Origin: Candidatus Falkowbacteria bacterium
Lineage (GTDB): Bacteria > Patescibacteriota > Patescibacteriia > UBA11705
NCBI GenBank assembly: GCA_003518055.1
Contig: DOZJ01000006.1
Span: 201,631-265,630 of the forward strand
Direction of reading: 5' to 3'
Length of the DNA: 64,000 bases
Of this stretch, positions 431 through 46,668 are shown one piece after another. The notes under the pieces are model-generated. The model did no database searches. It saw nothing but the letters and a program-made list of their open reading frames with translations, and was not told where the DNA came from. The translations under genes were made by a program, and so were the position numbers. How positions within the stretch are numbered: position 1 is the first letter of the stretch; each line of letters begins with the position of its first letter.

Positions 431-459
431 TTGACCGGGTATGGTTAGCGGTATATAAT
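431..459 (+). promoter_or_regulatory. sigma70-like promoter of the mraZ operon (TTGACC-N17-TATAAT)
   Basis: TTGACC at 431-436 and TATAAT at 454-459 with a 17-nt spacer, ~150 nt upstream of mraZ. Confidence 0.6.
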
Positions 460-606: not shown

Positions 607-1038
607 ATGTTCATCGGCGAATACACACATTCAATTGATGAAAAAGGTCGTTTGGCGATTCCAGTAAAGTTTCGAGCCAAATTGCTAAAAGGGGCAGTTG
701 TCACACGCGGTTTAGACAACTGTTTGTTTTTGTATAGTAAGGATGAGTGGAGTAAGTTGGCGGAAAAGTTGGTTCAGCTGCCAATCAGCCAAGCTAATAC
801 ACGCGCGTTCTCACGTCTGATGCTCGCCGGAGCCATGGACGTGGATTTGGATAAACAGGGAAGGATCACCTTGCCTGATTATCTAAGAAAATTTGGTACA
901 TTAAAGAAAAAGGTCGTGGTCGCCGGATTGTATAATCGGTTGGAAATCTGGGATGAAAAAGCTTGGAGCGAATATAATCAGGTGACCCAAAAAGACGCTA
1001 ATAATATCGCCGAAAAACTCGGCGAGTTGGGAGTTTGA
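607..1038 (+). CDS. mraZ: transcriptional regulator MraZ
   Basis: 143 aa with two tandem MraZ/SpoVT-AbrB-like halves (DEKGRLAIP, DKQGRITLP). Directly precedes rsmH. Confidence 0.9.
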   Translation: MFIGEYTHSIDEKGRLAIPVKFRAKLLKGAVVTRGLDNCLFLYSKDEWSKLAEKLVQLPISQANTRAFSRLMLAGAMDVDLDKQGRITLPDYLRKFGTLKKKVVVAGLYNRLEIWDEKAWSEYNQVTQKDANNIAEKLGELGV

Positions 1039-1042
1039 GATT

Positions 1043-1972
1043 ATGACTATACATGATCCGGTTTTATTAAACGAAGTTATAGAAATCTTAAATCCTGAAG
1101 CCAATCAGGATTTTATTGACGGAACGCTCGGCGGCGGCGGGCACGCGGAAAAGATTGTTGAACGGATTTTGCCTTCAGGCCGGTTGTTGGGCTTTGATTG
1201 GGACGGTGGCGCGGTTTCAGCGGTTAAGGAGCGGCTGAATAATTATAAAAAAAATGTTGTTTTGATCAATGATAGCTACATTACAATAAAGAAACATGCT
1301 TATGAAAACGGATTTGATGCAGTTGACGGTATTCTCCTTGATTTGGGCTTATCACTGGATCAGCTCAAAACCTCTGGTCGAGGCTTTACCTTTGAGAAGG
1401 ACGAGCCGCTAGACATGAGATATTCCCTTGAAGGGGAAATGATGGCGGCGGATATTATCAACACATATTCACAGCGCGAGTTGGAGTCAATTTTTCGAGA
1501 ATATGGTGAGGAGAAGCAGGCGGGAGCAATCGCCAAAGCGATTATTCAACAGAGAGGAGAGACACGAATTACCAGAACCGGTGAGTTGGTTGAATTGGTG
1601 AAGGCGGTAAAAGGGGTAAATCCAAGATTGAGAACCAATCCGGCGACAAAGGTTTTTCAGGCTTTGCGAATTGAAGTTAACCGTGAGTTTGATAATGTGA
1701 GGTTTGTAATTAGTGAGGCGATAGATTTGTTGAAGTCTGGCGGCCGGTTAGCAATAATCACGTTTCATTCGCTCGAAGACGCAATCGTGAAAGATTGTTT
1801 CAAGGCCGAAAGCGCCGGCTGTGTTTGTCCCAAGGAACTGCCGGTATGTGTGTGTCATCACGAGGCCAGAGTCAAATTGGTGACCAAAAAACCAATGGTC
1901 CCGAGTGAAGCAGAATTGAACCGAAATAGACGATCCAGATCGGCAAAGCTGCGAGTGGTGGAAAAACTTTGA
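1043..1972 (+). CDS. rsmH: 16S rRNA (cytosine1402-N4)-methyltransferase RsmH (MraW)
   Basis: 309 aa with a GTLGGGGHA SAM-binding motif and FHSLED motif, placed in the conserved mraZ-rsmH pair. C-terminal CxCP..PxCxC insertion. Confidence 0.9.
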   Translation: MTIHDPVLLNEVIEILNPEANQDFIDGTLGGGGHAEKIVERILPSGRLLGFDWDGGAVSAVKERLNNYKKNVVLINDSYITIKKHAYENGFDAVDGILLDLGLSLDQLKTSGRGFTFEKDEPLDMRYSLEGEMMAADIINTYSQRELESIFREYGEEKQAGAIAKAIIQQRGETRITRTGELVELVKAVKGVNPRLRTNPATKVFQALRIEVNREFDNVRFVISEAIDLLKSGGRLAIITFHSLEDAIVKDCFKAESAGCVCPKELPVCVCHHEARVKLVTKKPMVPSEAELNRNRRSRSAKLRVVEKL

Positions 1973-1995
1973 GTGGAAATTTTAAGGTGAAATAT

Positions 1996-2148
1996 ATGTC
2001 AGCGATAAAAATACAACGGCAGAAATGCGAAGTTTATACCAGGGTTGTCGGATATCTCAGTCCGGTGCACCGCTGGAATAGGGGTAAACAGCAGGAGTTC
2101 CGTGATCGGCGGATGTTTGATGCTAGGCAGATCGAAATTCGAGGGTGA
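1996..2148 (+). CDS. small ORF (50 aa) resembling the NrdD C-terminal glycyl-radical domain
   Basis: AAGGTG Shine-Dalgarno 7 nt before the ATG. The peptide EVYTRVVGYLSPVHRWNRGKQQEFRDRRMF matches the class III RNR (NrdD) C-terminal signature TRRVCGYLGSP...NAGKQEEVKRRVKH, with the radical-site RVxGY motif conserved. Below the 60-aa cutoff of the ORF track. Confidence 0.4.
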   Translation: MSAIKIQRQKCEVYTRVVGYLSPVHRWNRGKQQEFRDRRMFDARQIEIRG

Positions 2149-2207
2149 AATATTAAAACGATTTTGATGAAAATACTTTTCGTTTAAATAAAAATAAAAA
2201 TAAAAAC

Positions 2208-2567
2208 ATGACCCGCTATTCAACCTCAATGAAGTCGAAAATGGCTAAGAATCAAAGCCGGAAGCAGATAAGTTTATTTAAATTATTCAAATCAAAATTG
2301 ATCGGAGCTTTGATTGTCGTGGTGGTTTTGGCTTCAGCCCTGCTATATCTTTTTGAAATAAACAATATGGCGGTAACCGGTTATCAAATAAGAGAGTTGG
2401 AAAAGCAAGTCGCGGCAGTGAAGGCGGAAAACGAACATCTTGAATTGAAAACGGTTGAGTTGCAGTCGATGAAACATTTGCGCGAACGCGTGGGTGAGTA
2501 TAATTTTGTGGAGGCAGCTCAGATCAATTATGTTTCATGGCATGATACGTCGTTTGTACAGCGGTAA
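2208..2567 (+). CDS. ftsL: cell division protein FtsL/DivIC-like (single TM plus coiled coil)
   Basis: 119 aa with a basic N-terminus, one TM helix and a leucine-zipper-like coiled coil. Sits after rsmH in the dcw position. Confidence 0.6.
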   Translation: MTRYSTSMKSKMAKNQSRKQISLFKLFKSKLIGALIVVVVLASALLYLFEINNMAVTGYQIRELEKQVAAVKAENEHLELKTVELQSMKHLRERVGEYNFVEAAQINYVSWHDTSFVQR

Positions 2568-5076: not shown

Positions 5077-5143
5077 GGGGTGTTTGGAGAACAACGATTT
5101 TTGCGATGAAGGCGAATTTTGAAACAGGGTGGAGGTTTCTTCG

Positions 5144-5313
5144 TTTGACAGTTGACGGAGGCTGTCACGCCTGCCTGCCGGCAGGCAGGGCGCTACTTCG
5201 TACGCCTCGCAGCAAGAAAGAGAGGATTTTTTGCGAGGAAGGTACGACGAAGCAAACTACGATTGGCTGCTAATGGAGGCTGCTGCGTCGGTACTGCGTA
5301 CTCCTCGCAGCAA
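5144..5313. repeat. repeat family R1 (two units plus spacer; the first unit carries the R2 palindrome) upstream of the GIY-YIG gene
   Basis: Consensus unit TTGACAGCTAA(T/C)GGAGGCTGC(C/T)GCGTCGTTACTGCGTACTCCTCGCAGCAA. Units lie at 5144-5216 and 5265-5313, joined by the spacer TTTGCGAGGA(A)GGTACGACGAAGCAAACTACGA. Confidence 0.8.
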
Positions 5314-5326
5314 CAAACGTTTATCT

Positions 5327-5647
5327 ATGGGAGGGTTTGTATATATAATAACAAATAAATATAACACAGCTTTGTATGTAGGATCGGCAACTGATCTGCT
5401 GTTTAGAATTCAACAGCATAAGAACAAGGCATATAAGAGTTCATTTTCGGCTAGATATAATATTTCAAAATTGGTTTATTTTGAATGTTTTAATAGCAGA
5501 TATGAGGCATATCAACGAGAATATCAAATAAAGTCAGGATCAAGGGCTAAAAAGATTGCGTTAATAATAAAAGCGAATCCAGATTTTGATGATCTTTATG
5601 ATGATATTGTTTTAAATGGGATTGAAAAAAGTATATATAATAAATAG
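5327..5647 (+). CDS. GIY-YIG nuclease superfamily protein (YhbQ/UPF0213-like, ~106 aa)
   Basis: GFVYIITNKYNTALYVGSATDLLFRIQQH matches the GIY-YIG core of the short stand-alone family. The ATG at 5327 was chosen because the upstream part of the listed ORF is repeat sequence. Confidence 0.7.
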   Translation: MGGFVYIITNKYNTALYVGSATDLLFRIQQHKNKAYKSSFSARYNISKLVYFECFNSRYEAYQREYQIKSGSRAKKIALIIKANPDFDDLYDDIVLNGIEKSIYNK

Positions 5648-5686
5648 TGTAGCGTGAATTACGGAGCTGGTTGGAGACTGCTAAGA

Positions 5687-5922
5687 TTGACAGCTAATGG
5701 AGGCTGCTTCGTCGTAACTGGGTTGATGTGGAGTTCGAAACCGGGTGGAGCTGCTACATCTGTCAGCTAACGGAGGCTGCCACGGCGTTACTGCGTACGC
5801 CTCGCAGCAAAAGAAAGAGATGATATTTGCGAGGAGGTACGACGAAGCAAACTACGAACAAGCTGCCGTGTTTGCCTACTGATGGAGGCTGCTTCGTCGT
5901 TACTACGTACTCCTCGCAGCAA
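5687..5922. repeat. repeat family R1 (three units plus spacer) downstream of the GIY-YIG gene
   Basis: Units at 5687-5720 (truncated), 5758-5810 and 5876-5922. The same spacer as upstream lies at 5826-5857. Confidence 0.8.
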
Positions 5923-5948
5923 TAAAAAGGGGTTATGTTCAAAATAAT

Positions 5949-28541: not shown

Positions 28542-28567
28542 AACTAACATCGGGTTAAATGTTAGTT
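28542..28567 (-). terminator. terminator family AACTAACA-N-TGTTAGTT (copy for L2; contains the stop codon)
   Basis: AACTAACATcgggttaaATGTTAGTT. On the minus strand it is followed by TTTTTTCATTGACAA, which runs directly into the promoter of L1. Confidence 0.6.
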
Positions 28568-30505
28568 GAGTTGCCGCATATCCCAAATGCAAAATCTCCA
28601 GCCGTCAGATCTCGCGAGAAGGTAACGGCCATCATGACTCCAGTCAAAGTTGGTTTGAATAAGAGGGCCGCCGCAAAGTAAGGCGGCAACAGTTTTTTGA
28701 GTTGAGTAATCTTTTACGTAGTATACGCCATGAGCTTTGGCCATGTTCGCGCTGAGAGCGGGATTTTCGGTGGTGGGATTGAGAAAATAGAGTGGATTGG
28801 TTGGCGACCAAAATTTGAGATCGACAGAATGTTCAGGCAAGGACATGGGTAAAGTTAATGGCGTTTGGGTGTTTTTTTCCGGATCCAAGACAATAATCTT
28901 ATCACCGTTGGCAATCAGTAATTGCTGGCCATGCCACCACATGTGAGTTTTCGCGGTAACAAGCGGTAGACGACTGAGGAGGCTGTTGGTAACCGTATTC
29001 CAGACAGACACTCTGAGGCCTGTTTGATCCTTGACCAGCGTGGCCAATCGATGGTTGGCGTAGTTTAAGCGAACGATTTGGACTTTATTGCATTCAGTGG
29101 CAAACAAAGTCGGATCCGAGGCGTCCGGACATTCATTGAGCTCAACCATGACGGTATTGGTCGTGAAATCAAGCAATCTGATTTTTCCTGATTCTCCGTA
29201 GTAAAAAGATTTTGAATCTTTATCGCATGAAGAATTGGCTCGAAATGAAATTGAAAGATTAGATGCAAATGCCTTACTGTAACCCAGTCTTGAATAACAA
29301 GAGTCAGGAGAAATGCATGATCCCTGATGAACAACATACCCATGGTCTGTCCAGCTGATTAATTTATTCCTGGCGTCAGCGCAGCTTACAGATTCATAAG
29401 CTGTGAAAATGGTTTCCCCAGATTCAATTGCCCAAATCCGAAATGTAGATCTGACTGTATCTGTAGCTGAACATGCCACCTGATCGATAATGGCCAGTCT
29501 TTGATCATCGGTTGACCAGACAACGTCAGTAAGATTTCCGATATAACGTTCTTGAAAAGAGGTGATTATATTTTCAGTGCCGGTTTCGTTAATCAGAATT
29601 TGTGTCGTTGAACTGCCATTGATTAATGCGATATACTTTCCAGAGTAAGAAAATCTGGCGAATCTAAAATGGCCGCCTAGCTGTTCGATGGTGATGTGGA
29701 AAGCCGGCCGAACGACCTTGATCCGCGACAGATCGGCTTGAACTCGTTTTTCTTGTTCGATTCTTCTTTGTTCCTCGAGCTCTTTTTGACGCTGTAAGGC
29801 GGTTTGTTGGTCTTGGAGGTCTTTTTGCCGTTGCAATTCCAATTGGCGTTGTTGGTCTTTGGCCGCTTCTTCCGGTCGAATATAATGGTCGTAGATTTCA
29901 GACAATGGTTTTAGGTCGGTTTTTTCATCGGTGAGGACCAACCTGTTGGAGTCGGGTTGGATGCGAGTGATGACCAAGTCAAGATCAGCCAGAATATTAT
30001 TGATTTCGTCTTCATCCAAGCTATTAAACATGATGGCGTCAAGTCTTAATTTTTTTTCCAAGGTACTGAGTTCAACGGTGCCCGCTTGGGTCAGATGGAT
30101 ATGTTTGTTCACAATTTGAATGTAGGCATTAGCTGTTTGGATCGCTTCGAGACAACCTCGGATTTTTTCATCCTTGATCGCTTGATCAAAACCAATCAAA
30201 CCGGTTCGGCTTTTCTCCGTCTTAATTTCGATAACATTAGCGTTGATTTCAGCATCAATTTGGGTCAGGGTAGCGGCAAGGGTGGTTTCTTTTTGTTGAA
30301 GCACGGATTTGAGCGTTTGAACTTCTTGTAGTTTTTCCGTGGTTAATTCTTGCTTGCTTTTTGTCGCTTTAGCCGCGGGGACAATTTTGACACTTTCGGT
30401 TGGCTTCATTTCGTCGGAATGGTTGGGGTTGGAATTACAGGCGAGGCCGGTCATGATGATTAAAATTCCAAACGCTAGCGTCTCAAAGAAATTTGATGAT
30501 TTCAT
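28562..30505 (-). CDS. lipoprotein L2 (conserved N-domain, coiled coil, PD40/TolB-like beta-propeller repeats)
   Basis: 647 aa with a signal peptide and a Cys at ~22. The N-domain is homologous to L1, L3 and L4. C-terminal repeats of the WSTDDQRLAIID / WSHDGRYLLARSDG type match PD40/WD40-like blades. Confidence 0.65.
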   Translation of the reverse strand: MKSSNFFETLAFGILIIMTGLACNSNPNHSDEMKPTESVKIVPAAKATKSKQELTTEKLQEVQTLKSVLQQKETTLAATLTQIDAEINANVIEIKTEKSRTGLIGFDQAIKDEKIRGCLEAIQTANAYIQIVNKHIHLTQAGTVELSTLEKKLRLDAIMFNSLDEDEINNILADLDLVITRIQPDSNRLVLTDEKTDLKPLSEIYDHYIRPEEAAKDQQRQLELQRQKDLQDQQTALQRQKELEEQRRIEQEKRVQADLSRIKVVRPAFHITIEQLGGHFRFARFSYSGKYIALINGSSTTQILINETGTENIITSFQERYIGNLTDVVWSTDDQRLAIIDQVACSATDTVRSTFRIWAIESGETIFTAYESVSCADARNKLISWTDHGYVVHQGSCISPDSCYSRLGYSKAFASNLSISFRANSSCDKDSKSFYYGESGKIRLLDFTTNTVMVELNECPDASDPTLFATECNKVQIVRLNYANHRLATLVKDQTGLRVSVWNTVTNSLLSRLPLVTAKTHMWWHGQQLLIANGDKIIVLDPEKNTQTPLTLPMSLPEHSVDLKFWSPTNPLYFLNPTTENPALSANMAKAHGVYYVKDYSTQKTVAALLCGGPLIQTNFDWSHDGRYLLARSDGWRFCIWDMRQLN

Positions 30506-30579
30506 GGGTGGTCTCCTGTTTGGTTGTCAAGGGTCATTCAATTAAAGCTACCTCTAATCGCACTCTTTGTCAATGAAAA

Positions 30580-30603
30580 AACTAACATTGGTTGATGTTA
30601 GTT
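30580..30603 (-). terminator. terminator family AACTAACA-N-TGTTAGTT (copy for L3)
   Basis: AACTAACATtggttgATGTTAGTT plus a T-run on the minus strand. Confidence 0.6.
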
Positions 30604-32915
30604 TAGTAAACCATGATTGTTAGAGGAAGGTGATGCTTGGGGCATTTTTTTCTAGAGCACGGAAGAGTTCTCGAGGCATCTCTTGCGAAATCACAACTCT
30701 CATTCGGACAAGTGCAATAATCCCTGTTGTTTGGGTCATCAGGCTCCATTTCACTGTAGTTATTTTCATAATCATCTTTTGTATAACTTTTTTTTGCGTA
30801 TTTCAGGTATTCAGAATATTGTTTTTCATTAAGAAGTGGGATTCCATGCTCTAAACAAGTTTGTTTTGAACACGTATCGAACTTTTTAATATACACAGTG
30901 GTAGCTTCAATTGGACAATAACAGTGAGAACCTTCGGGAATTTTAACTTCTACATATCGTGGTGATGATAATTGAGGATCGACTGGAGTAACTTCTAGGG
31001 GCGGGGTGGTCGGTGCGGTTTCAATTTCAACTTCGGGTTCTTTTGGTTTTTGGGGTGGTGGTGTGAAAGGTGGTGAGTATGGTGGTGAGTAAGTCACATT
31101 CCACAAACAATAATTCCATCCGTTAGTTAATCCGATGATGTGTTTCCCATCTGGACTCCACGATATTTCCCCAGCAATTCTTTGATTGCAGAGTAGAGCG
31201 GCGATGGTGCTTTCTGATTCTATGTCTTTAATATAGTACTTCCCATAAGCCGCCGCTATTTTTTTCGCTAGACCAGTGACTTCTGTCGTCGGACTTAGAA
31301 ATACATAGGGATCTCGAGGCGACCAAGAAATATCGGCGGTAACAAAGAAGCTGGTTTTTTTTAATTCCCATTTTTGGGAGCCCAGTTTGTAGATCTCGCC
31401 ACCGGTGACAATTACAAGAGCATCGCCCCACCACCAGAATTGGGTGTCGGGAACGAGTTTAATCATGGAGTTGATCTTTTCTTTGGTCGTGGTGTCCCAG
31501 ACTGATAGTCTGTATCCTTTTTTGTCTTGAACAAAGGTTACAAGGCGATCGCGTTCATATAGCATCTGGAGCACAACGACTGAACTGCATTCTGTTTTAA
31601 ACAGATTTGGATCTGATTTATCAGGACATTCATTAACTTCAACGGTTTCTTGGCCGGTGTTTAAGTCATACAACTTTACTTTTCCGTCTTTACTATAATA
31701 AAAAGAATGATCATCTTTCCAAAACGTGGAAGAAGCTCGGAATGAATGTTTGCCGATTCTTTCTCCAGTATCGCTAAGAATGTTCACATGACAATTGTAA
31801 CCAGCACTATCTCCATAAATTACAATGTTTATTTTATTCCAACCAAGAAGCTGGGGAGTACAACCGGAATAGTCAAGCGAAACGTTAACGGAAGTATAAT
31901 CACGTTGATCCACCGACCAAACTCTAAATGTTTGATCTACACAATTTCCTGATAATACGGCGATGGTTTTGTCATCCGGAGACCAAGCGACATCATATAA
32001 GGCGTGAAGTTTATGAGCCCTTTCTGCTGGCACAGGGATAGGGATTTCGGTTGTTTCGGGTGGATCTTTGCTAAAATCTTCAATATAGAGTTTTCTTTGG
32101 TCATTACTTGTACCATATAGTAAGACTAGTGGTTTTGAGTGTGCCCATAGAACACGAGTCACTGCAGCATCCGCACCTTGAATCGTTTTGTATAAAGTGG
32201 GTTCAATTATCGGCATTTCTTGAAGTTGTTGCTTGGATTCTTCTTGGTGTTCAAGTTCTACTTGTCTTTGTCGCTCTTTTCCTCGTTCTTCTCGCCCAAT
32301 ATATTGTTCATAAATATCAGGCAGTGGCTGGCGGTCAATATCTTCCTCGGTAACGATTGATTCCACAGCATTTGGGCCTACGCGATCGATAACTAGATTT
32401 AGATCGGTGATGAGATCATCGAGTTTGGCTTCTTCCAGCCCTTCGAGATAGATAACGCCAAGTTCAGTTTGTTTCTCTTCTCCTTTTAAGTCTACTAACC
32501 CAGCTTCGGTGATTTGGGCGTGTTTGGTATAAGATTGTTTGTAGGCGTGGGCTGTCTGTATGGCTTCAAGGCAGTGACTAATAGAGACTTGTTGCATGGA
32601 CTGTTCAAAGCCGGTAATGCCGGCGCGGCTTTGTTCAGTTTTGATTTCAGCTACGTTAGCGGTGATTTTCGCATCAAACTTAGCAAGTGTGGTTTGTAAA
32701 ACGGTTTTTTTCTGTTGCAGTGCAACGGAGAGATCTTTTATTGCCTGTAGTTTTTCTTGATACAAGAGAACTTTGCTTTTTTTATCAATGGGTTTCGGAG
32801 TGTAGCGAATTACTACTTCATCCGGAGGCGGAGGTACCGGAGTTTCAGTCTTGTTGCAGGCGGCAAAAATCATGATGGTAGCTAGGAAAAAACAAAAGAT
32901 GGGTTTAGATCTCAT
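30603..32915 (-). CDS. lipoprotein L3 (conserved N-domain, beta-propeller, Pro-rich linker, Cys-rich C-terminus)
   Basis: 770 aa with an IFAAC lipobox. PD40-like WSPDDKTIAVLSG / WSPDGKHIIGLTNG blades, a PPYSPPFTPPPQKPKEPE linker, and a C-terminal CxC…HHLPL module related to the L1 C-terminus. Confidence 0.65.
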   Translation of the reverse strand: MRSKPIFCFFLATIMIFAACNKTETPVPPPPDEVVIRYTPKPIDKKSKVLLYQEKLQAIKDLSVALQQKKTVLQTTLAKFDAKITANVAEIKTEQSRAGITGFEQSMQQVSISHCLEAIQTAHAYKQSYTKHAQITEAGLVDLKGEEKQTELGVIYLEGLEEAKLDDLITDLNLVIDRVGPNAVESIVTEEDIDRQPLPDIYEQYIGREERGKERQRQVELEHQEESKQQLQEMPIIEPTLYKTIQGADAAVTRVLWAHSKPLVLLYGTSNDQRKLYIEDFSKDPPETTEIPIPVPAERAHKLHALYDVAWSPDDKTIAVLSGNCVDQTFRVWSVDQRDYTSVNVSLDYSGCTPQLLGWNKINIVIYGDSAGYNCHVNILSDTGERIGKHSFRASSTFWKDDHSFYYSKDGKVKLYDLNTGQETVEVNECPDKSDPNLFKTECSSVVVLQMLYERDRLVTFVQDKKGYRLSVWDTTTKEKINSMIKLVPDTQFWWWGDALVIVTGGEIYKLGSQKWELKKTSFFVTADISWSPRDPYVFLSPTTEVTGLAKKIAAAYGKYYIKDIESESTIAALLCNQRIAGEISWSPDGKHIIGLTNGWNYCLWNVTYSPPYSPPFTPPPQKPKEPEVEIETAPTTPPLEVTPVDPQLSSPRYVEVKIPEGSHCYCPIEATTVYIKKFDTCSKQTCLEHGIPLLNEKQYSEYLKYAKKSYTKDDYENNYSEMEPDDPNNRDYCTCPNESCDFARDASRTLPCSRKKCPKHHLPLTIMVY

Positions 32916-35544: not shown

Positions 35545-35568
35545 AAACTAACATCTTTGGTGTTAGTT
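35545..35568 (-). terminator. terminator family AACTAACA-N-TGTTAGTT (copy for L4)
   Basis: AACTAACATctttggtGTTAGTT hairpin plus a T-run on the minus strand. Confidence 0.55.
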
Positions 35569-37634
35569 TAATCGAGTAACGAGGTGTCCCAAACAGCAAC
35601 TTTTAGTTCGCGGTTAATTCCTATCAGGTAGCGGTTGGTTGGATCCCAGTGGAAGTTGACGGCATCATCTTTGATAAATCCATCGGGGAAAAAGTCAAAT
35701 GGAGCTTTCAAAACAGCTAAGAATTGTTTTGGTTGCAAGTGATCTTTGAAGAGCCTATAAGTTTTACAAATATACGTTGGAGTTGGTTCAAGCTGTAGTC
35801 CTGAAGATTTGACAGGTGTCGTTTTTTTATAAGGTGGTTGCTCGAGAACAACAAAATAATTTTTTGACGGACGTGAAGTAATCCGGCCACTATTATATAA
35901 CATCCACCAGATGTCAATAATATTTACAACCGGTGCGTCTGTAGTAAATGAAGTTTGCGTTTTATCGCTCCAGTTCCAAAAAGATATTCTGTACGTTGTT
36001 TTAGAGAAGTCATCATTTTTGGATTCAGATAAAACTACCAAGGTTCCGTTGTCATACATAATTTGGCTAATATGCAAAAGATCTTGGCACTGTTTGAATA
36101 AATTTTTGGGATCTGACTTCCAAGGGCATTCATCGAATCCAACTTCCTTTCGTGTTGCGAGGTTGTACTCATAAAAATTATTTGCTCCAACGTGATAAAT
36201 AATTGTACCATTACCCGTTGCAACAGTCTGGTCCACATTGGTTAAATATGCTTTTCGTCGGAAGGCATACTCGTGAGATTCAGAAACATCTATGATATGT
36301 ATGGGGAAATCATTAAAAAACTTACCACCAGAAGCGCCAAATCGGTGTATTACGATTGTATCATTGGTCCAGTTAATGATGTGTTGCGCCTTAAAACAGC
36401 AGTTTGGGTCCCACCAGCAATCACGCTCACTTTGTTGGACGTTAACTCCCTTTAATATTTCACGAAAAGTTGCCTCTCTTTGAGTAAACGACCAAACCTT
36501 GAGACTGCTTTCACAATCATCATCCTTATGTTCAGTTAATATGGCAAGACCGGTATTGTCTGGTGACCACATAACATCTTTATATGATTCTGCTCTTGGA
36601 GTTAAACGGCTGAAAGGGCTATAAGCTTTTTTTTCGGCTGCATCATAAATAAAAATTCTGATAGGGGAAAAAAAAGCAAAGAGACTTGGTTTCCCGGACC
36701 AAATAACCTTGAACTCAGATAAGAATTCTTTGGCGTTACTTTCGGGGAATGGTTTATTGAGTTCAAATGTATACAGCGGTTGCAGACACAAAAAGTCGAA
36801 ATCAGGGTCTTTTGTCGTGAATTTAGCTTTTAATTGCTGTAGTACTTGTTTTTTATATTCAGCCTTTCTGGCCTCATCTTGCTGTTTTTGTTCCTGAGAT
36901 TTTTTTTGTTCCTGTTGTCTTTTTTCTTCTTCAGTCCGGATATACTTTTGGTAGATTTCATCAAGACTTTTGGTTTTGGCGTCTTGCGGGCGTGGCAACT
37001 TCAGCATTTCAGCTTGGGGTTGATATTCGGTGATGACAATATTCAGTTTGGCGATTAGATCGTCAACGCTGTCAACGTCCATTGAGTCCAAGAGTTCAAT
37101 ATCCAGTTTTAGTCTTTTTTCCAGACCATTCAATTCACTTCGTCCAAGTTCAGTTTGGCTTAGCGCTTCGGTTACGATTTGGATGTAGGCATCGGCCACG
37201 CTAATGGTTTCAAGGCAAAATTGAATATCTTTGTTAGCGATTGTTTTTTCAAGTACGGTTTGTGAGGTTTCACTTTTTTTTGCCATAATTTCATTGACAT
37301 TGGTTTGAATGTCATCAGTGAATTTTTGGATTTTTTGGCGCAATTCCGTGGCGCGATCGGATAGGCTTGCTTTCAGAAGTTGAACCTCAGATAATTTTTG
37401 ACGAGTCAAGTCCTGTTTGCTTTTAATTTCTTTGGTGGGCGCCGGTGGACTGATGACAATTACTTTTTGCGGTTGATTGGTTGGAGTTGGTGAGTTTGAA
37501 TGTTGATTGCAAGAACAGAAGGTCAGGATAATGATCGTCAGCAAGGCAAATTTTCGGTGTTTCATGGTTGGTCTCCTAGTTTGGTTGTCAATGGGCATTC
37601 CTTTATGTTTACATCGAATTGATAATTTTGTCAA
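35568..37634 (-). CDS. lipoprotein L4 (conserved N-domain, coiled coil, beta-propeller-like C-domain)
   Basis: 688 aa with signal peptide LLTIIILTFCSC. The N-domain is homologous to L1-L3, followed by a KE/Q-rich segment and C-terminal MWSPDNTGLAILTEH-type blades. Confidence 0.65.
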   Translation of the reverse strand: MTKLSIRCKHKGMPIDNQTRRPTMKHRKFALLTIIILTFCSCNQHSNSPTPTNQPQKVIVISPPAPTKEIKSKQDLTRQKLSEVQLLKASLSDRATELRQKIQKFTDDIQTNVNEIMAKKSETSQTVLEKTIANKDIQFCLETISVADAYIQIVTEALSQTELGRSELNGLEKRLKLDIELLDSMDVDSVDDLIAKLNIVITEYQPQAEMLKLPRPQDAKTKSLDEIYQKYIRTEEEKRQQEQKKSQEQKQQDEARKAEYKKQVLQQLKAKFTTKDPDFDFLCLQPLYTFELNKPFPESNAKEFLSEFKVIWSGKPSLFAFFSPIRIFIYDAAEKKAYSPFSRLTPRAESYKDVMWSPDNTGLAILTEHKDDDCESSLKVWSFTQREATFREILKGVNVQQSERDCWWDPNCCFKAQHIINWTNDTIVIHRFGASGGKFFNDFPIHIIDVSESHEYAFRRKAYLTNVDQTVATGNGTIIYHVGANNFYEYNLATRKEVGFDECPWKSDPKNLFKQCQDLLHISQIMYDNGTLVVLSESKNDDFSKTTYRISFWNWSDKTQTSFTTDAPVVNIIDIWWMLYNSGRITSRPSKNYFVVLEQPPYKKTTPVKSSGLQLEPTPTYICKTYRLFKDHLQPKQFLAVLKAPFDFFPDGFIKDDAVNFHWDPTNRYLIGINRELKVAVWDTSLLD

Positions 37635-42050: not shown

Positions 42051-43319
42051 TTGTCAATCAGTATGAAAATCAAAAAAATTACAGCTCGTGAAATCCTCGA
42101 CTCCCGCGGCAATCCGACCGTGGAAGCTTTAGTTGAGCTTGAAAATGGCATCAAAGCCAAAGCATCGGTGCCGAGTGGCGCGTCAACAGGAGAACACGAA
42201 TCGTTAGAGTTAAGAGATGGGGATAAAAAAAGGTATTTGGGCCGTGGCGTGCTTAAAGCGATAAAAAATGTGAATCAGAAAATCGCGCCGAAATTGAAAG
42301 GCATGGATGTAACGAAGCAAACGGATTTGGATCAAATGATGCTTGAGCTTGACGGCACAGAAAATAAATCAAAACTTGGGGCGAATGCGATTTTGGCGGT
42401 TTCAATGGCCGTGGCCCGAGTCGGAGCTCTAGCTACGAATAAACCGTTATATAAATATATTCGTGAAACTTTCGGTTTTAAGGAGAAGGGTTGGAGGCTG
42501 CCGATTCCAACTATGAACATTATCAATGGAGGCAAGCACGCGGATAATTCTTTGACCGTGCAGGAATTTATGGTGGTGCCATTGGCGTCAAAGTTTGCCA
42601 CCCGTGTTCGAATCGGGTCGGAAGTGTTTCATCATTTGAAAAAATTGTTAAAGGAAGCAGGGTATCAGACTTTGGTCGGAGATGAAGGCGGTTTCGCGCC
42701 GAATTTGAAAAGAAATGAGGACGCTCTGGAGTTTATTGTCAAGGCGATAAAAAAAGCCGGATATACTCCGGGCAAAGACGCGGTTTTGGCGGTGGATTTG
42801 GCGTTGTCGGAGTATTACAGCGGCGGCAAGTACGCGATGAATGATAAAACAGGAAAAATAAAAATTTCCGCCGACCAGGTGATCAAAACTTTGGACAAGT
42901 GGGTGGCTAAATATCCGATCGTGTCACTCGAAGATCCTTTGGCTGAGGATGATTGGGAAAATTGGGCCAAGATGACGGATTTTCTTGGCCATAAAGTATT
43001 GTTCGTCGGCGATGATTTGTTTGTGACAAACGCCGAGCGGTTGCAACAGGGAATCGATACCGGTGTGGCCAATGCGATTTTGATTAAACTTAATCAGATA
43101 GGAACATTGTCGGAAACAATGGAAACTATTTATCTGGCGAAAAAGAATGGCTATAAAATCAGCGTTTCTCATCGTTCCGGTGAGACAGCCGATACATTTA
43201 TCGCTGATTTGGCGGTGGCGGTCAACGCGGATTTTATCAAAACTGGGTCATTGTCGCGGTCGGAACGAGTGGAGAAATATAACCGGCTCATGGAGATTGA
43301 AGGGGAAGTAAAAGCATAA
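42051..43319 (+). CDS. eno: enolase
   Basis: 422 aa with canonical enolase N- and C-domains ([17 protein letters not shown]…, …SHRSGETEDT-like [10 protein letters not shown]). Confidence 0.95.
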
Positions 43320-43470: not shown

Positions 43471-45045
43471 ATGCAAAAAAAACCAATAGTCTTGCTAATC
43501 CTCGACGGCTGGGGTTTGGCCCCGAAGTCAAAATTTAACGCGGTGGAGCAGGCCAAAAAGCCTAATTTCGACAAGTTGTGGAAAAAATATCCGCATACTT
43601 CGTTATCCGCGAGCGGGGATGGTGTCGGTTTGCCGGCGCGGCAGCCGGGAAATTCAGAAGCCGGTCATATGAACATCGGCGCTGGGCGTTTGGTGTTACA
43701 GGACACGATGATTATCAACCGCTCCATTGATGATAGAACTTTTTTTGGCAATACAGCGTTTTTGCACGCGTTTGATCATATAAAGGCCAACAAGTCGCGG
43801 CTGCATTTGATGGGTTTGGTCTCGGTTAACGGCAGCCCGCATAGTGATTTGAGGCATCTTTTTGCTTTGATTGAGTTGGCTAATGCGCAAAAACAACAAA
43901 AGATTTTTTTGCACCTTTTTACCGATGGCCGTGATTCGCCGCAGCATTCAATTTCTTCAATTATAAAAAAAATAAGATCACACGTACAAAAAATAAATGT
44001 TACCGGTGATATTGATGTTCAGATTGTAACTTTGATGGGTCGGTTTTACGCGATGGATCGGGGTAAAAATTGGAATCGAACCAAGGCGGCGTACGATTGT
44101 TTGGTTGAAAGTCGCTGCCGGCGTTTTCCTTCGGTTGAAGCGGCAATTGAGCACTCATATAACGCTGGTAATACGGATGAATATTTTGAGCCGTCAATTG
44201 TTGAAGATGATGATAATAAGGAACAGACACGGGTCAAAAAAAATGATGCAATTATATTTTTTAATTTGAGATCAGATCGAGCGCGGCAAATAGCGAAGGT
44301 GTTTGCGCAAAATGATTTTACCAAAAAAAACAACAAATCATTTACTCGGTCAAAGGTGGTGAAAAACGTTTTGTTTTGCGCCTTGACGGATTTTGGTCCG
44401 GATTTATCGAGTAATTTGGTCACTGCTTTTCCCGGTGATGATTTGATCGGCACGATGCCGTTTATCATGAATCGATATAAACAATTGTATATCGCTGAAA
44501 CGGAAAAATTTGCCCATGTAACATACTTTATCAACGGCGGTCATGCTGATCCGGTTTTTGCTGAGCAGCGCGTAAAGATTGATTCACCGAAAATACGCAG
44601 TTATGCGCAAAAACCGGAAATGTCAGTTTACAAAATTACCGATTATATAGTAAAAAGTATACAGAAGGGGACGGCAAATTTTATTGTGGCGAATTTTGCT
44701 AATCCTGATATGGTTGGGCATACCGGTGATTTTGAAGCCACGAAGGCGGCCATCTCGCATGTTGATAATTGTCTTGGGATGGTGGTGGCGGCGGTTCATG
44801 AACAGGAAGGAACATTGTTTGTTACCGCTGATCATGGTAACGCGGAAAAAATGATGGATGCCAATGGGGAAATTAATGTCCAGCATACGACCAACCCGGT
44901 GCCGTTCATTGTGGCTAACCATGATAAATCCATCCGGCTACGAAAAGGAATCTTGGGTGATATCGCGCCGACAATATACGATTATTTTGATATTATTAAG
45001 CCGGATTATGTGACTGGTAAGTCATTAATAACAAATCACAAATAA
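43471..45045 (+). CDS. gpmI: 2,3-bisphosphoglycerate-independent phosphoglycerate mutase, copy 1
   Basis: 524 aa with an LILDGWG N-terminus, a GNSEAGHMNIGAGR phosphoserine loop and an HTGDFEA metal-site motif. Confidence 0.85.
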   Translation: MQKKPIVLLILDGWGLAPKSKFNAVEQAKKPNFDKLWKKYPHTSLSASGDGVGLPARQPGNSEAGHMNIGAGRLVLQDTMIINRSIDDRTFFGNTAFLHAFDHIKANKSRLHLMGLVSVNGSPHSDLRHLFALIELANAQKQQKIFLHLFTDGRDSPQHSISSIIKKIRSHVQKINVTGDIDVQIVTLMGRFYAMDRGKNWNRTKAAYDCLVESRCRRFPSVEAAIEHSYNAGNTDEYFEPSIVEDDDNKEQTRVKKNDAIIFFNLRSDRARQIAKVFAQNDFTKKNNKSFTRSKVVKNVLFCALTDFGPDLSSNLVTAFPGDDLIGTMPFIMNRYKQLYIAETEKFAHVTYFINGGHADPVFAEQRVKIDSPKIRSYAQKPEMSVYKITDYIVKSIQKGTANFIVANFANPDMVGHTGDFEATKAAISHVDNCLGMVVAAVHEQEGTLFVTADHGNAEKMMDANGEINVQHTTNPVPFIVANHDKSIRLRKGILGDIAPTIYDYFDIIKPDYVTGKSLITNHK

Positions 45046-45090: not shown

Positions 45091-46668
45091 ATGGCTCAAA
45101 AAAAACCGTTTGCTTTGATTGTCATGGATGGCTGGGGCGTTGCTCCGGCTTGCGATAGTAATGGCGTGACTTTGGCCAAAACGCCTAACTTTAACAATTA
45201 TATCTCGAATTTTCCCACATATACGTTATTGGCTTCAGGCGAAGCGGTGGGCTTGTCGTGGGGGGAAATCGGTAACTCGGAAGTCGGCCATTTAAATTTG
45301 GGGGTTGGGAAAATTATGTTTCAGAATTTGCCGCGAATCGATCGTGAAATCAATGACGGTAGTTTTTTTTCCAATGAAAGCTTTTTGAAGGCACTGGAAC
45401 ACGTAAAGAAAAATCGAAGCCGCTTGCACTTGATTGGTCTCATGAGTGATGGCAAGGTTCATTCAACCATAACGCATTTTTACGCTTTTTTGGATTTAGC
45501 CAAAAAAAATAAAGTGAAAGACGTATATATTCATGGGTTTTTGGATGGACGAGATACTCTGTACAACGGCGGCAAGGGTTATGTTCAAGAAATGCTAAAT
45601 AAAATGAAAGAAATCGGGGTCGGTGAATTGGCGACTTTGAGTGGTCGTTATTATGCCATGGATCGGGATAATCATTGGGAAAGAGTTGAAAAAACATATA
45701 AAGCGATGACTGAGGGCGTTAGCGATGAGTATTTTGATGATCCGGGTGAGGCGGTTGAAGCTTCTTACGCCAAAAAAGTGTATGATGAAGAGTTTATTCC
45801 GGTGGTTATTGGTAAACAAGGAAAACCAACAGCTGTAGTTGAGGCCGGTGATGCGTGTATTTTTATTAATTATCGCTCTGATCGGGCACGGCAGCTGACC
45901 AAGGCTTTTGTGGCGGATGATTTCAACAAGTTTAATCGAACGAAGATTGATAATTTGGTTTTTGTGACCATGACCGAATATGAAAAGGGCTTGCCGGTTG
46001 ACGTGGCGATGTCAAGGGACGACGCGGAGACCTGTTTGGCGCGGGTCGCCAGCGAGTCAGGGGTAAGTCAGTATCATATCGCGGAAACGGAAAAGTACGC
46101 GCATGTTACGTTCTTTTTTAATGGAGGCAAGGAAGATGTTTTTAAAAATGAAGATCGTGATGTGATTCCATCGCCCCGCGTGGCCAGTTTTGCTGATAAG
46201 CCGGAAATGTCCGCGCTTGATGTTACTCAGAAATTATCAAAAGTAATGTTGCAGGAGAAACATGATTTTTATGTGGTTAATTATGCCAATCCGGATATGG
46301 TTGGTCATACCGGCGATATTAACGCGGTGATCAAGGCGGTTCAAACAACCGATTATTGTGTGGGACAGATTGTTGATTTGATTTTGTCCAAAGGCGGCAG
46401 CTGTATTTTGACGGCTGATCATGGCAACTGCGAGGAGCTGCGGAATTTGCAGACCGGGGAAATCAGCAAGGATCACTCAACCAATCCGGTGCCGTGCGTT
46501 GTTATCGGTGAAAAGTATCGCGGCAAAACCAACCCTGATTCTCAGGTTATTGGCGGTGATTTGAGTTTACTCCGGCCGGTGGGGTTGCTGTCCGATGTTT
46601 CGGCCACAGCGTTGAAAATGATGGATTTGGAGATTCCCAAGTACTTGAGTGGGAGACCGTTGATATAA
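45091..46668 (+). CDS. gpmI: 2,3-bisphosphoglycerate-independent phosphoglycerate mutase, copy 2 (tandem paralog)
   Basis: 525 aa with IVMDGWG, GNSEVGHLNLGVGK and HTGDINA. Divergent from copy 1 (~35-40% identity by eye). Confidence 0.85.
   Translation: MAQKKPFALIVMDGWGVAPACDSNGVTLAKTPNFNNYISNFPTYTLLASGEAVGLSWGEIGNSEVGHLNLGVGKIMFQNLPRIDREINDGSFFSNESFLKALEHVKKNRSRLHLIGLMSDGKVHSTITHFYAFLDLAKKNKVKDVYIHGFLDGRDTLYNGGKGYVQEMLNKMKEIGVGELATLSGRYYAMDRDNHWERVEKTYKAMTEGVSDEYFDDPGEAVEASYAKKVYDEEFIPVVIGKQGKPTAVVEAGDACIFINYRSDRARQLTKAFVADDFNKFNRTKIDNLVFVTMTEYEKGLPVDVAMSRDDAETCLARVASESGVSQYHIAETEKYAHVTFFFNGGKEDVFKNEDRDVIPSPRVASFADKPEMSALDVTQKLSKVMLQEKHDFYVVNYANPDMVGHTGDINAVIKAVQTTDYCVGQIVDLILSKGGSCILTADHGNCEELRNLQTGEISKDHSTNPVPCVVIGEKYRGKTNPDSQVIGGDLSLLRPVGLLSDVSATALKMMDLEIPKYLSGRPLI

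Follow-up and report, generated by a model that had tools for sequence, protein, structure and literature searches.

Glycyl-radical enzymes are cleaved by O2 at the radical glycine, and in the case of pyruvate formate-lyase (PFL) the lost part of the cleaved enzyme is replaced by YfiD, which is activated by the PFL activase (PMC13450708; PMC8683613). According to a review of June 2026, such spare parts are known only for PFL, and the question of others is open (PMC13450708). In NrdD, which is the ribonucleotide reductase (RNR) of class III (anaerobic), the glycyl-radical domain comprises a zinc site, a buried Gly loop and a surface tail that includes a short helix, and the mobility of the domain is high (PMC11226230). 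An RNR split over two chains has been described for class II, namely NrdJa/NrdJb, for example in Pseudomonas aeruginosa (PMC9669993). Here we describe an open reading frame (ORF) of 50 codons at positions 1996–2148 of a 64,000-nucleotide stretch of contig DOZJ01000006.1 of Candidatus Falkowbacteria bacterium (this whole stretch is hereafter called the window). In this ORF, the small subunit of a split NrdD is encoded a second time. It is probably functional as a detachable glycyl-radical segment of this split class III RNR, consisting of the Gly loop and the C-terminal tail without a zinc ribbon.

The window peptide resembles GrcA/YfiD of E. coli and Y06I of phage T4 in that each is a small stand-alone copy of the radical-bearing C-terminal segment alone. 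Like GrcA/YfiD, it is presumably activated by the activase of the parent enzyme and would act in trans on the core. Further, phage versions exist for both the GrcA/YfiD type (Y06I of T4) and the NrdD-type mini-proteins (hereafter minis). However, the window ORF belongs to another sequence family, matching the NrdD profile only, is about 50 aa long compared with 127 aa for YfiD, and lacks the disordered N-terminal domain of YfiD. GrcA/YfiD coexists with a complete parent enzyme, whereas the NrdD core of the window lineage lacks a radical segment of its own and the mini is obligatory; a complete parent enzyme beside a mini was found only in other lineages (loci L050, L058, L060 and L082). Full-length NrdDs, as in the structures from T4, T. 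maritima and P. copri, contain a homologous RVxGY loop, a WNxGKxxE motif and the short helix. Unlike in these enzymes, the radical segment in the window has a gene to itself and lacks the zinc ribbon.

Two further RNR systems are comparable in part. In the split class II RNR, the catalytic chain is also spread over two consecutive genes, with a C-terminal module on the smaller chain. However, NrdJb carries zinc-finger and IscU-like domains for re-reduction and no radical, and the analogy is one of gene organisation alone. The beta subunit of class I RNR likewise bears the radical on a separate polypeptide that docks onto the catalytic subunit, but this is a ferritin-like metallo/tyrosyl radical rather than a backbone glycyl radical made by a radical S-adenosylmethionine (radical-SAM) activase, and the proteins are unrelated. 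In the literature searched, we came across no account of either a split of NrdD at its glycyl-radical segment or a spare part of the NrdD type.

The ORF occupies the plus strand of the 235-bp spacer between rsmH and ftsL in the dcw operon. The original prediction, made from the sequence of the window, had placed it there with an ATG start, 50 aa and a stop codon, and we confirmed this. The Shine–Dalgarno-like sequence that had been predicted is also present, 5 nt before the ATG. Gene callers start the ORF at an upstream TTG at 1969, which gives 59 aa; we favour the ATG because the N-termini of homologs (MPATKIQRQKC...) fit it. The features of the ORF are as follows.

1984–1990, plus strand: Shine–Dalgarno-like AAGGTGA, read from the sequence, 5 nt 5′ of the ATG at 1996.
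1996–2148, plus strand: 50-aa NrdD-type glycyl-radical mini-protein, MSAIKIQRQKCEVYTRVVGYLSPVHRWNRGKQQEFRDRRMFDARQIEIRG, identified from profile matches, purifying selection, its family and a partner operon in the same assembly.
2020–2118, plus strand: conserved core, residues 9–41, corresponding to the buried Gly loop and the start of the C-terminal tail of NrdD.
2050–2052, plus strand: codon GGA for Gly19, the predicted radical-bearing glycine of RVVGY, assigned by alignment and invariant in the 92-sequence family alignment.

When the peptide was searched against profile databases, it matched Pfam NRDD (PF13597) with an E-value of 2.9e-10 and 39.9 bits (cutoff 26.2), and residues 9–41 aligned with positions 531–562 of the 562 profile positions, that is, with the extreme C-terminus only. 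It also matched TIGR02487 of NCBIfam (E = 2.8e-9, positions 549–579 of 581). The proposed similarity to the NrdD C-terminus was therefore significant. The TIGR02487 score was 36.1 bits against an equivalog cutoff of 326.35, and the ORF is not itself an NrdD enzyme because its mere 50 residues include neither the barrel nor the catalytic cysteine loop. The C-terminal glycyl-radical motif of NrdD, RVVGY, is present at residues 16–20, and all family-invariant residues of the 92-sequence alignment (E12, R16, G19, P23, K31, E34 and R38) are kept. The zinc ribbon that precedes the Gly loop is absent from the peptide, whose sole cysteine is C11.

Residues 611–646 of the 651-residue T. maritima NrdD aligned with the window peptide, and Gly19 fell on the glycine of the RIVGY motif of this enzyme, which was the only protein found, with weak matches (E = 0.07), in a sequence search of the PDB. 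No family other than NRDD in Pfam and the NrdD models in NCBIfam matched the peptide at E ≤ 1. Because the PFL-type Gly_radical and GrcA models were unmatched at this threshold, the ORF is not a GrcA/YfiD homolog. An AlphaFold2 (AF2) model of the peptide alone was extended to about residue 22 and helical at residues 29–36, with a pLDDT of 76.6, and this arrangement fits the domain layout of NrdD (PMC11226230). A search of Rfam at E ≤ 1 over positions 1700–2900 yielded only chance-level matches outside the ORF and no RNA element.

The micro-ORF is present in the same slot in relatives. In the one used for comparison (locus L001), a 47-aa ORF that is 80% identical to the window peptide lies in the same mraZ-rsmH-X-ftsL arrangement. 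The mini was the best conserved of the three products compared, since the identities of RsmH and FtsL were 73% and 64%, respectively, and the spacers on either side of the mini were not conserved. The coding frame of the window ORF is under strong purifying selection; over 37 codons aligned with L001, the proportion of nonsynonymous differences (pN) was 0.09 and that of synonymous differences (pS) was 0.90, which is saturated. Further, the slot is filled in a Falkowbacteria genome in which RsmH is merely 54% identical (MFGJ01000007.1) and in a further lineage (L231). The dcw location, which had been called odd in the original prediction, is indeed unusual, but it is not accidental, being conserved down to 54% RsmH identity.

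Neither an NrdD core nor NrdG is encoded in the window, as had been stated before, and the same was true when flanks were added so that about 81 kb of the source contig was covered. Both genes were found on another contig (L264), where the gene order is ftsA-ftsZ-...-nrdR-nrdD core-mini-nrdG (NrdD core, HCC23472.1, 685 aa; NrdG, HCC23470.1; FtsZ, HCC23478.1). The evidence that L264 and the window come from one organism consists of contiguous accessions, datasets in common and composition rather than a closed genome. The window RsmH is identical to HCC23717.1 of the third-party annotation (TPA) assembly of Candidatus Falkowbacteria, and this accession and that of the window MetRS (HCC23787.1) belong to the same accession block as those of L264. 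L264 and the window occur together in four datasets (JGI 3300009031, ENA ERZ909580, Logan SRR6482257 and Logan SRR5855242). The tetranucleotide correlation between them was 0.959, compared with 0.95–0.978 within the window and 0.84–0.935 for other loci.

The resident nrdD does not retain any glycyl-radical domain at its C-terminus; HCC23472.1 ends in ...CPKCDEEMGYAEHADEILNKTV and has no Gly segment. The enzyme is divided such that ATP-cone, barrel and zinc ribbon reside in the 685-aa core and the RVVGY glycine in a peptide of about 50 aa. The operon mini (51 aa, L264:8176-8331) is 71% identical to the window peptide. Thus, the window ORF represents a second paralog beside the operon mini and is unlinked to it: neither nrdD nor nrdG was present within about 81 kb, and the operon copy is on another contig. 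The earlier suggestion of a part analogous to GrcA/YfiD holds insofar as the window encodes a stand-alone NrdD-type radical mini; however, it is not a spare for a complete enzyme, as the resident NrdD is split.

The pairing of an operon copy with a dcw copy was also found on single contigs, namely MFGJ01000007.1 of Falkowbacteria, where the two copies are about 180 kb apart, and a JGI contig of 520,868 bp. In neighbour-joining trees of a 43-column core alignment with 200 bootstraps, the copies of the same genome clustered in 0 and 1 of the 200 trees, and the window copy grouped with its dcw ortholog of L001 in 93% of the trees. The duplication is therefore an old one, since copies of one genome do not cluster, and each of the two copies has been retained. 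In three Falkowbacteria genomes (L169, L172 and L264), nrdR-nrdD-mini-nrdG lies just downstream of ftsA-ftsZ, and both mini copies therefore adjoin division genes. In MFGJ01000007.1 (L169:7191-7343), the gap between nrdD and nrdG contains a 50-aa mini at which the NCBI gene table lists no gene; other assemblies with the same NrdD protein do call the mini, indicating that small radical subunits are under-annotated.

One genome per GTDB species and the viral sequences of IMG/VR were scanned, each scan giving at least 600 matching stretches. We classified 79 genome loci and 72 viral loci. For each scan, these were drawn from the 80 loci most similar to the query, and the counts below are accordingly not unbiased frequencies or a measure of prevalence.

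Layout A, split: an NrdD core of 660–700 aa (longer with inserts) followed by a 40–69-aa mini; 24 genome loci and 2 viral loci.
Layout B, tandem (L050, L058, L060 and L082): a complete NrdD of 708–711 aa followed by an 85–92-aa mini with its own zinc ribbon; 4 genome loci and 0 viral loci.
Layout C, orphan: a mini that has neither NrdD nor NrdG within 10 kb; 7 genome loci and 59 viral loci.
Full-length only: a complete NrdD and no separate mini; 44 genome loci and 8 viral loci.
Ambiguous: a match at a contig end; 0 genome loci and 3 viral loci.

The break in the split systems occurred at the same place throughout. All 24 split cores end 8–30 residues past the second CPxC of the zinc ribbon, whereas 41 full-length and 4 tandem enzymes run on past the ribbon into CEVYSRVVGY.... 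The ribbon (...CPxHGY...CPxC) thus stays with the core in split systems, and the break falls in the linker between ribbon and Gly loop. Coverage of TIGR02487 was complementary, with split cores spanning positions 1–549, minis about 540–580 and complete NrdDs 1–580 of 581. Split cores pass the equivalog cutoffs even though they lack the radical site. NrdG was present in the fetched locus for 23 of the 24 split genome loci; its type is NrdG2 (E about 1e-60), and the mini lies between or beside nrdD and this activase. Among close metagenomic relatives, the mini was linked to nrdD and an NrdG2-type activase in 44 of 78 cases.

The gap from core to mini in layout A is 0–180 nt, and a few loci (L014, L022, which is from an Acetomicrobium hydrogeniformans metagenome-assembled genome, and L062) have the order nrdD-nrdG-mini. 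Some of the gaps hold Shine–Dalgarno-like sequences (e.g., TAAGGAGGACAAAGATG in L080), and both gap length and gene order vary, as expected if core and mini are translated separately. The taxa with layout A include Patescibacteria, Thermoplasmata, Micrarchaeota, Woesearchaeota, Acetomicrobium, Bacillota and Chloroflexia. A truncated core is the rule in this clade: when the 120 nearest relatives of one split core (that of L008) were compared, 119 lacked the Gly segment. The remaining relative, P0231 (704 aa), is the only one with core and Gly segment fused; therefore fission or fusion events occur within this clade. We considered whether the CDEE(I/M)GY tail of split cores represents a degenerate Gly loop and rejected this, as the tail is a variable linker that is absent in several cores. 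Three loci (L029, L072 and L075) have split cores of 1007–1350 aa; the extra length is likely caused by inteins, as indicated by a precomputed PF14890 match in P0268.

The tandem loci resemble the classical arrangement of GrcA/YfiD with its parent. In L050, the Gly segment of the mini is identical to the C-terminus of the neighbouring NrdD at 34 of 34 residues, and the nine differences among 102 nucleotides are all synonymous. In L058 and L060, 31 of 34 residues are identical between mini and enzyme; the last three positions compared differ and the tails diverge. This identity points to selection for interchangeability of the mini and the enzyme segment.

The minis form a large family. A profile built from the first homologs was searched against 1.84 billion representative proteins and gave 4,835 matches at E ≤ 1e-3. 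The best 150 of these comprised 139 stand-alone minis, 9 full-length NrdDs and 2 fragments of full-length NrdDs. The 139 minis are 42–170 aa long (median 62), have an annotated start codon and share, among the best 150 matches, the core CEVYSRVVGYLxPVxxWNxGKxxEFxDR. Their N-termini are mutually unrelated, and 9 of them have their own CxxC...CxxC ribbon. The window peptide fits the core proposed for the family, CE(V/I)Y(S/T)R(V/I)VGYxxPxxxWNxGKxxE in ORFs of 40–170 aa. The mini-ORFs that we fetched are not truncated gene calls, because in-frame stops bound them on both sides deep within long contigs. Judged from sequence, NrdD-type radical mini-proteins appear to be widespread in bacteria, archaea and phages. 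Databases record the similarity, in that Pfam NRDD matches such proteins and proteins of 45–144 aa are named "anaerobic ribonucleoside-triphosphate reductase", with no separate function attached.

Several unusual forms were seen among the minis. In three short proteins (P0005, P0016 and P0082), a single ORF holds two tandem copies of the Gly-loop motif; these proteins may be assembly artefacts or real double-loop variants. Desulfobacterota metagenome-assembled genomes (L019, L030, L067, L074 and L085) contain orphan minis of 116–135 aa that have a helical part at the N-terminus and a CxxC...CxxC ribbon of their own; no NrdD was present in the flanks fetched, and these minis form a distinct, longer subfamily. 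A candidate for a split nrdD interrupted by an HNH endonuclease (P0003/L007) was rejected; the 761-aa upstream protein lacks an NrdD domain and its surroundings are phage-like.

Orphan minis were the commonest case on viral contigs (59 of the 72 classified viral loci). The viral nature of the contigs was checked: at L108:10001-11713, the mini lies directly upstream of the genes for the terminase large subunit and the portal, and the contig of L104 holds a tape-measure gene. In the cultured-phage collection there were three matches only, including a 144-aa mini of ANMV-1 virus that is annotated NrdD. A second recurrent orphan context was found at L251:9157-11827 and also at L177, L217 and L222; it consists of a deoxynucleoside kinase (PF01712, E = 5e-50), the mini and a SpoIID-like membrane protein of about 550 aa, with RuvB nearby. 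This context again links the mini to the supply of deoxynucleoside triphosphates (dNTPs) and to cell-envelope genes.

We propose that the two-component enzyme would operate as follows. NrdG, a radical-SAM protein of the NrdG2 type, would abstract a hydrogen from Gly19 while the peptide is free or loosely bound. The loop of the peptide would then enter the NrdD barrel beside the catalytic cysteine and supply the radical in trans. Cleavage by O2 at the radical glycine would cost just a 5-kDa piece, and a fresh peptide could replace the lost one. The dcw copy would most likely be an additional, replacement or differently timed supply of the radical subunit.

The genes around the window ORF are those of the dcw operon, and the features upstream and downstream of it are listed here.

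431–459, plus strand: sigma-70-like promoter match TTGACC-17-TATAAT (11/12 to the consensus), upstream of mraZ.
607–1038, plus strand: mraZ (Pfam MraZ, E = 2.1e-39).
1043–1972, plus strand: rsmH, 16S rRNA m4C1402 methyltransferase (Pfam Methyltransf_5, E = 1.2e-107).
2208–2567, plus strand: FtsL/DivIC-like division protein of 119 aa that has a single transmembrane helix as well as a coiled coil (Pfam DivIC matched only weakly, E = 0.03).

The FtsL/DivIC-like protein has an ortholog, 64% identical, in the same position of L001. The match at 431–459 is likely the promoter of an mraZ-rsmH-mini-ftsL transcript, and the window ORF appears, on weak evidence, to be co-transcribed with these genes. 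The 10 kb downstream of the window contain an ATP-synthase operon. Elsewhere in the window, five copies of a direct repeat of 30–80 nt (core ...GCTAAYGGAGGCTGC...ACTGCGTAC.CCTCGCAGCAA...) lie at 5139–5939 and flank an ORF with a GIY-YIG domain (5231–5647), and together they may form a small element of the mobile or repeat kind. Enolase (42051–43319) is directly followed by two paralogs, in tandem, of cofactor-independent phosphoglycerate mutase (43471–45045 and 45091–46668; iPGM_N plus Metalloenzyme). On the minus strand at 28562–32915, two large adjacent proteins of 647 and 770 aa gave only weak matches to WD40/PD40 beta-propellers, and a 688-aa ORF at 35568–37634 had no Pfam match.

Several points weigh against a functional, detachable radical subunit encoded by the window ORF. 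The peptide has no zinc ribbon, and its sequence does not explain how 50 residues would stay attached to the core. The confidence of the AF2 model, made for the isolated peptide, is only moderate, and a Foldseek search of the PDB with this model found no fold match, although such a search is uninformative for a 50-residue loop plus helix. For the family as a whole, we infer activation in trans, docking and replacement from sequence and genomic context. The four copies in the dcw slot were not recovered as one clade in the 43-column alignment. A (D/N)(K/R)(M/I/V)L tail is common to the operon copies and missing from the dcw copies, which bears on the role of the second copy; this copy could serve as a spare, could supply the subunit at a different time or could be a variant whose properties are altered. 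The promoter evidence is weak, since such matches are no more numerous in the region than in shuffled sequence, and the terminator scan, itself weak evidence, gave no convincing terminator before ftsL.

We weighed four other explanations for the ORF. The dcw paralog might be a cell-cycle-coupled isoform that tunes class III RNR activity, and hence dNTP supply, to division, and it may do so by a different stability or affinity arising from its divergent C-terminal tail. Retention of the rsmH-ftsL slot in four or more lineages, even where RsmH identity falls to 54%, speaks for such a role, as do the age of the duplication, with same-genome copies not clustered, the absence of the operon-type tail from the dcw copies, the position of the Falkowbacteria nrd operon itself just downstream of ftsA-ftsZ, and another orphan group beside a deoxynucleoside kinase and a SpoIID-like gene. 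However, every family-invariant residue is kept and the sequence reveals no functional difference, the vicinity of division genes may be a neutral insertion site, and the molecular mechanism would be the same as in the explanation that we prefer, with the physiological role alone being different. We therefore regard the isoform as unlikely, though worth keeping in mind. A decoy or inhibitor, binding NrdG or the empty NrdD core without catalysis and so damping RNR or acting as a radical sink, appears improbable. It would suit a free-standing copy with a divergent tail outside the operon, and many phages carry the mini alone with no NrdD or NrdG within 10 kb, where it could interfere with the host enzyme; but the radical glycine and all invariant residues are conserved under purifying selection, and the tandem minis are kept identical to the enzyme segment by synonymous-only change, which fits substitution and not inhibition.

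Before the nrd operon was found, the lack of nrd genes within about 81 kb made it plausible that the nrdD operon had lost its own mini and that the dcw copy alone was left. This is now very improbable, since an intact 51-aa mini lies between nrdD and nrdG in L264 of the same TPA assembly and MFGJ01000007.1 likewise has an operon mini. The ORF is short and apart from nrdD and covers just 32 of the 562 profile positions, as expected of a decayed remnant of the nrdD C-terminus with a chance open frame and ribosome-binding site, which was one of two readings in the original prediction. This reading was refuted and we give it practically no weight: pN is 0.09 and pS is 0.90 against the ortholog, the 80% identity of the mini exceeds that of RsmH and FtsL whereas the flanking spacers are unconserved, and there are hundreds of stop-bounded stand-alone homologs. 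The ORF is not a remnant, because purifying selection, the slot kept to 54% RsmH identity and the large family all speak against decay. We thus favour a functional radical subunit of the split NrdD, present in a second copy.

We lean slightly towards a broader view, in which class III RNR in many lineages is a two-component enzyme that carries its radical on a dissociable, replaceable cartridge of about 5 kDa, with unlinked copies, tandem spares and phage orphans as its variants and the first spare parts outside PFL among them. Under this view, the two-component lineages would include CPR (candidate phyla radiation) bacteria, DPANN archaea, Thermoplasmatota, Synergistota, Bacillota and Chloroflexota, and the phage orphan minis would possibly keep host dNTP synthesis running. 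The mini ORFs are at present missed in annotation, as in MFGJ01000007.1, or labelled as full "anaerobic ribonucleoside-triphosphate reductase", and they constitute a large and easily testable candidate family for anaerobic RNR, an essential enzyme. If this view is true, a glycyl-radical enzyme can work while its radical resides on a separate peptide of 50 residues, which would provide a minimal substrate for the study of activase recognition and radical transfer. It would also reveal a new kind of phage auxiliary gene and would explain how organisms with tiny genomes achieve a cheap repair of oxygen-sensitive dNTP synthesis.

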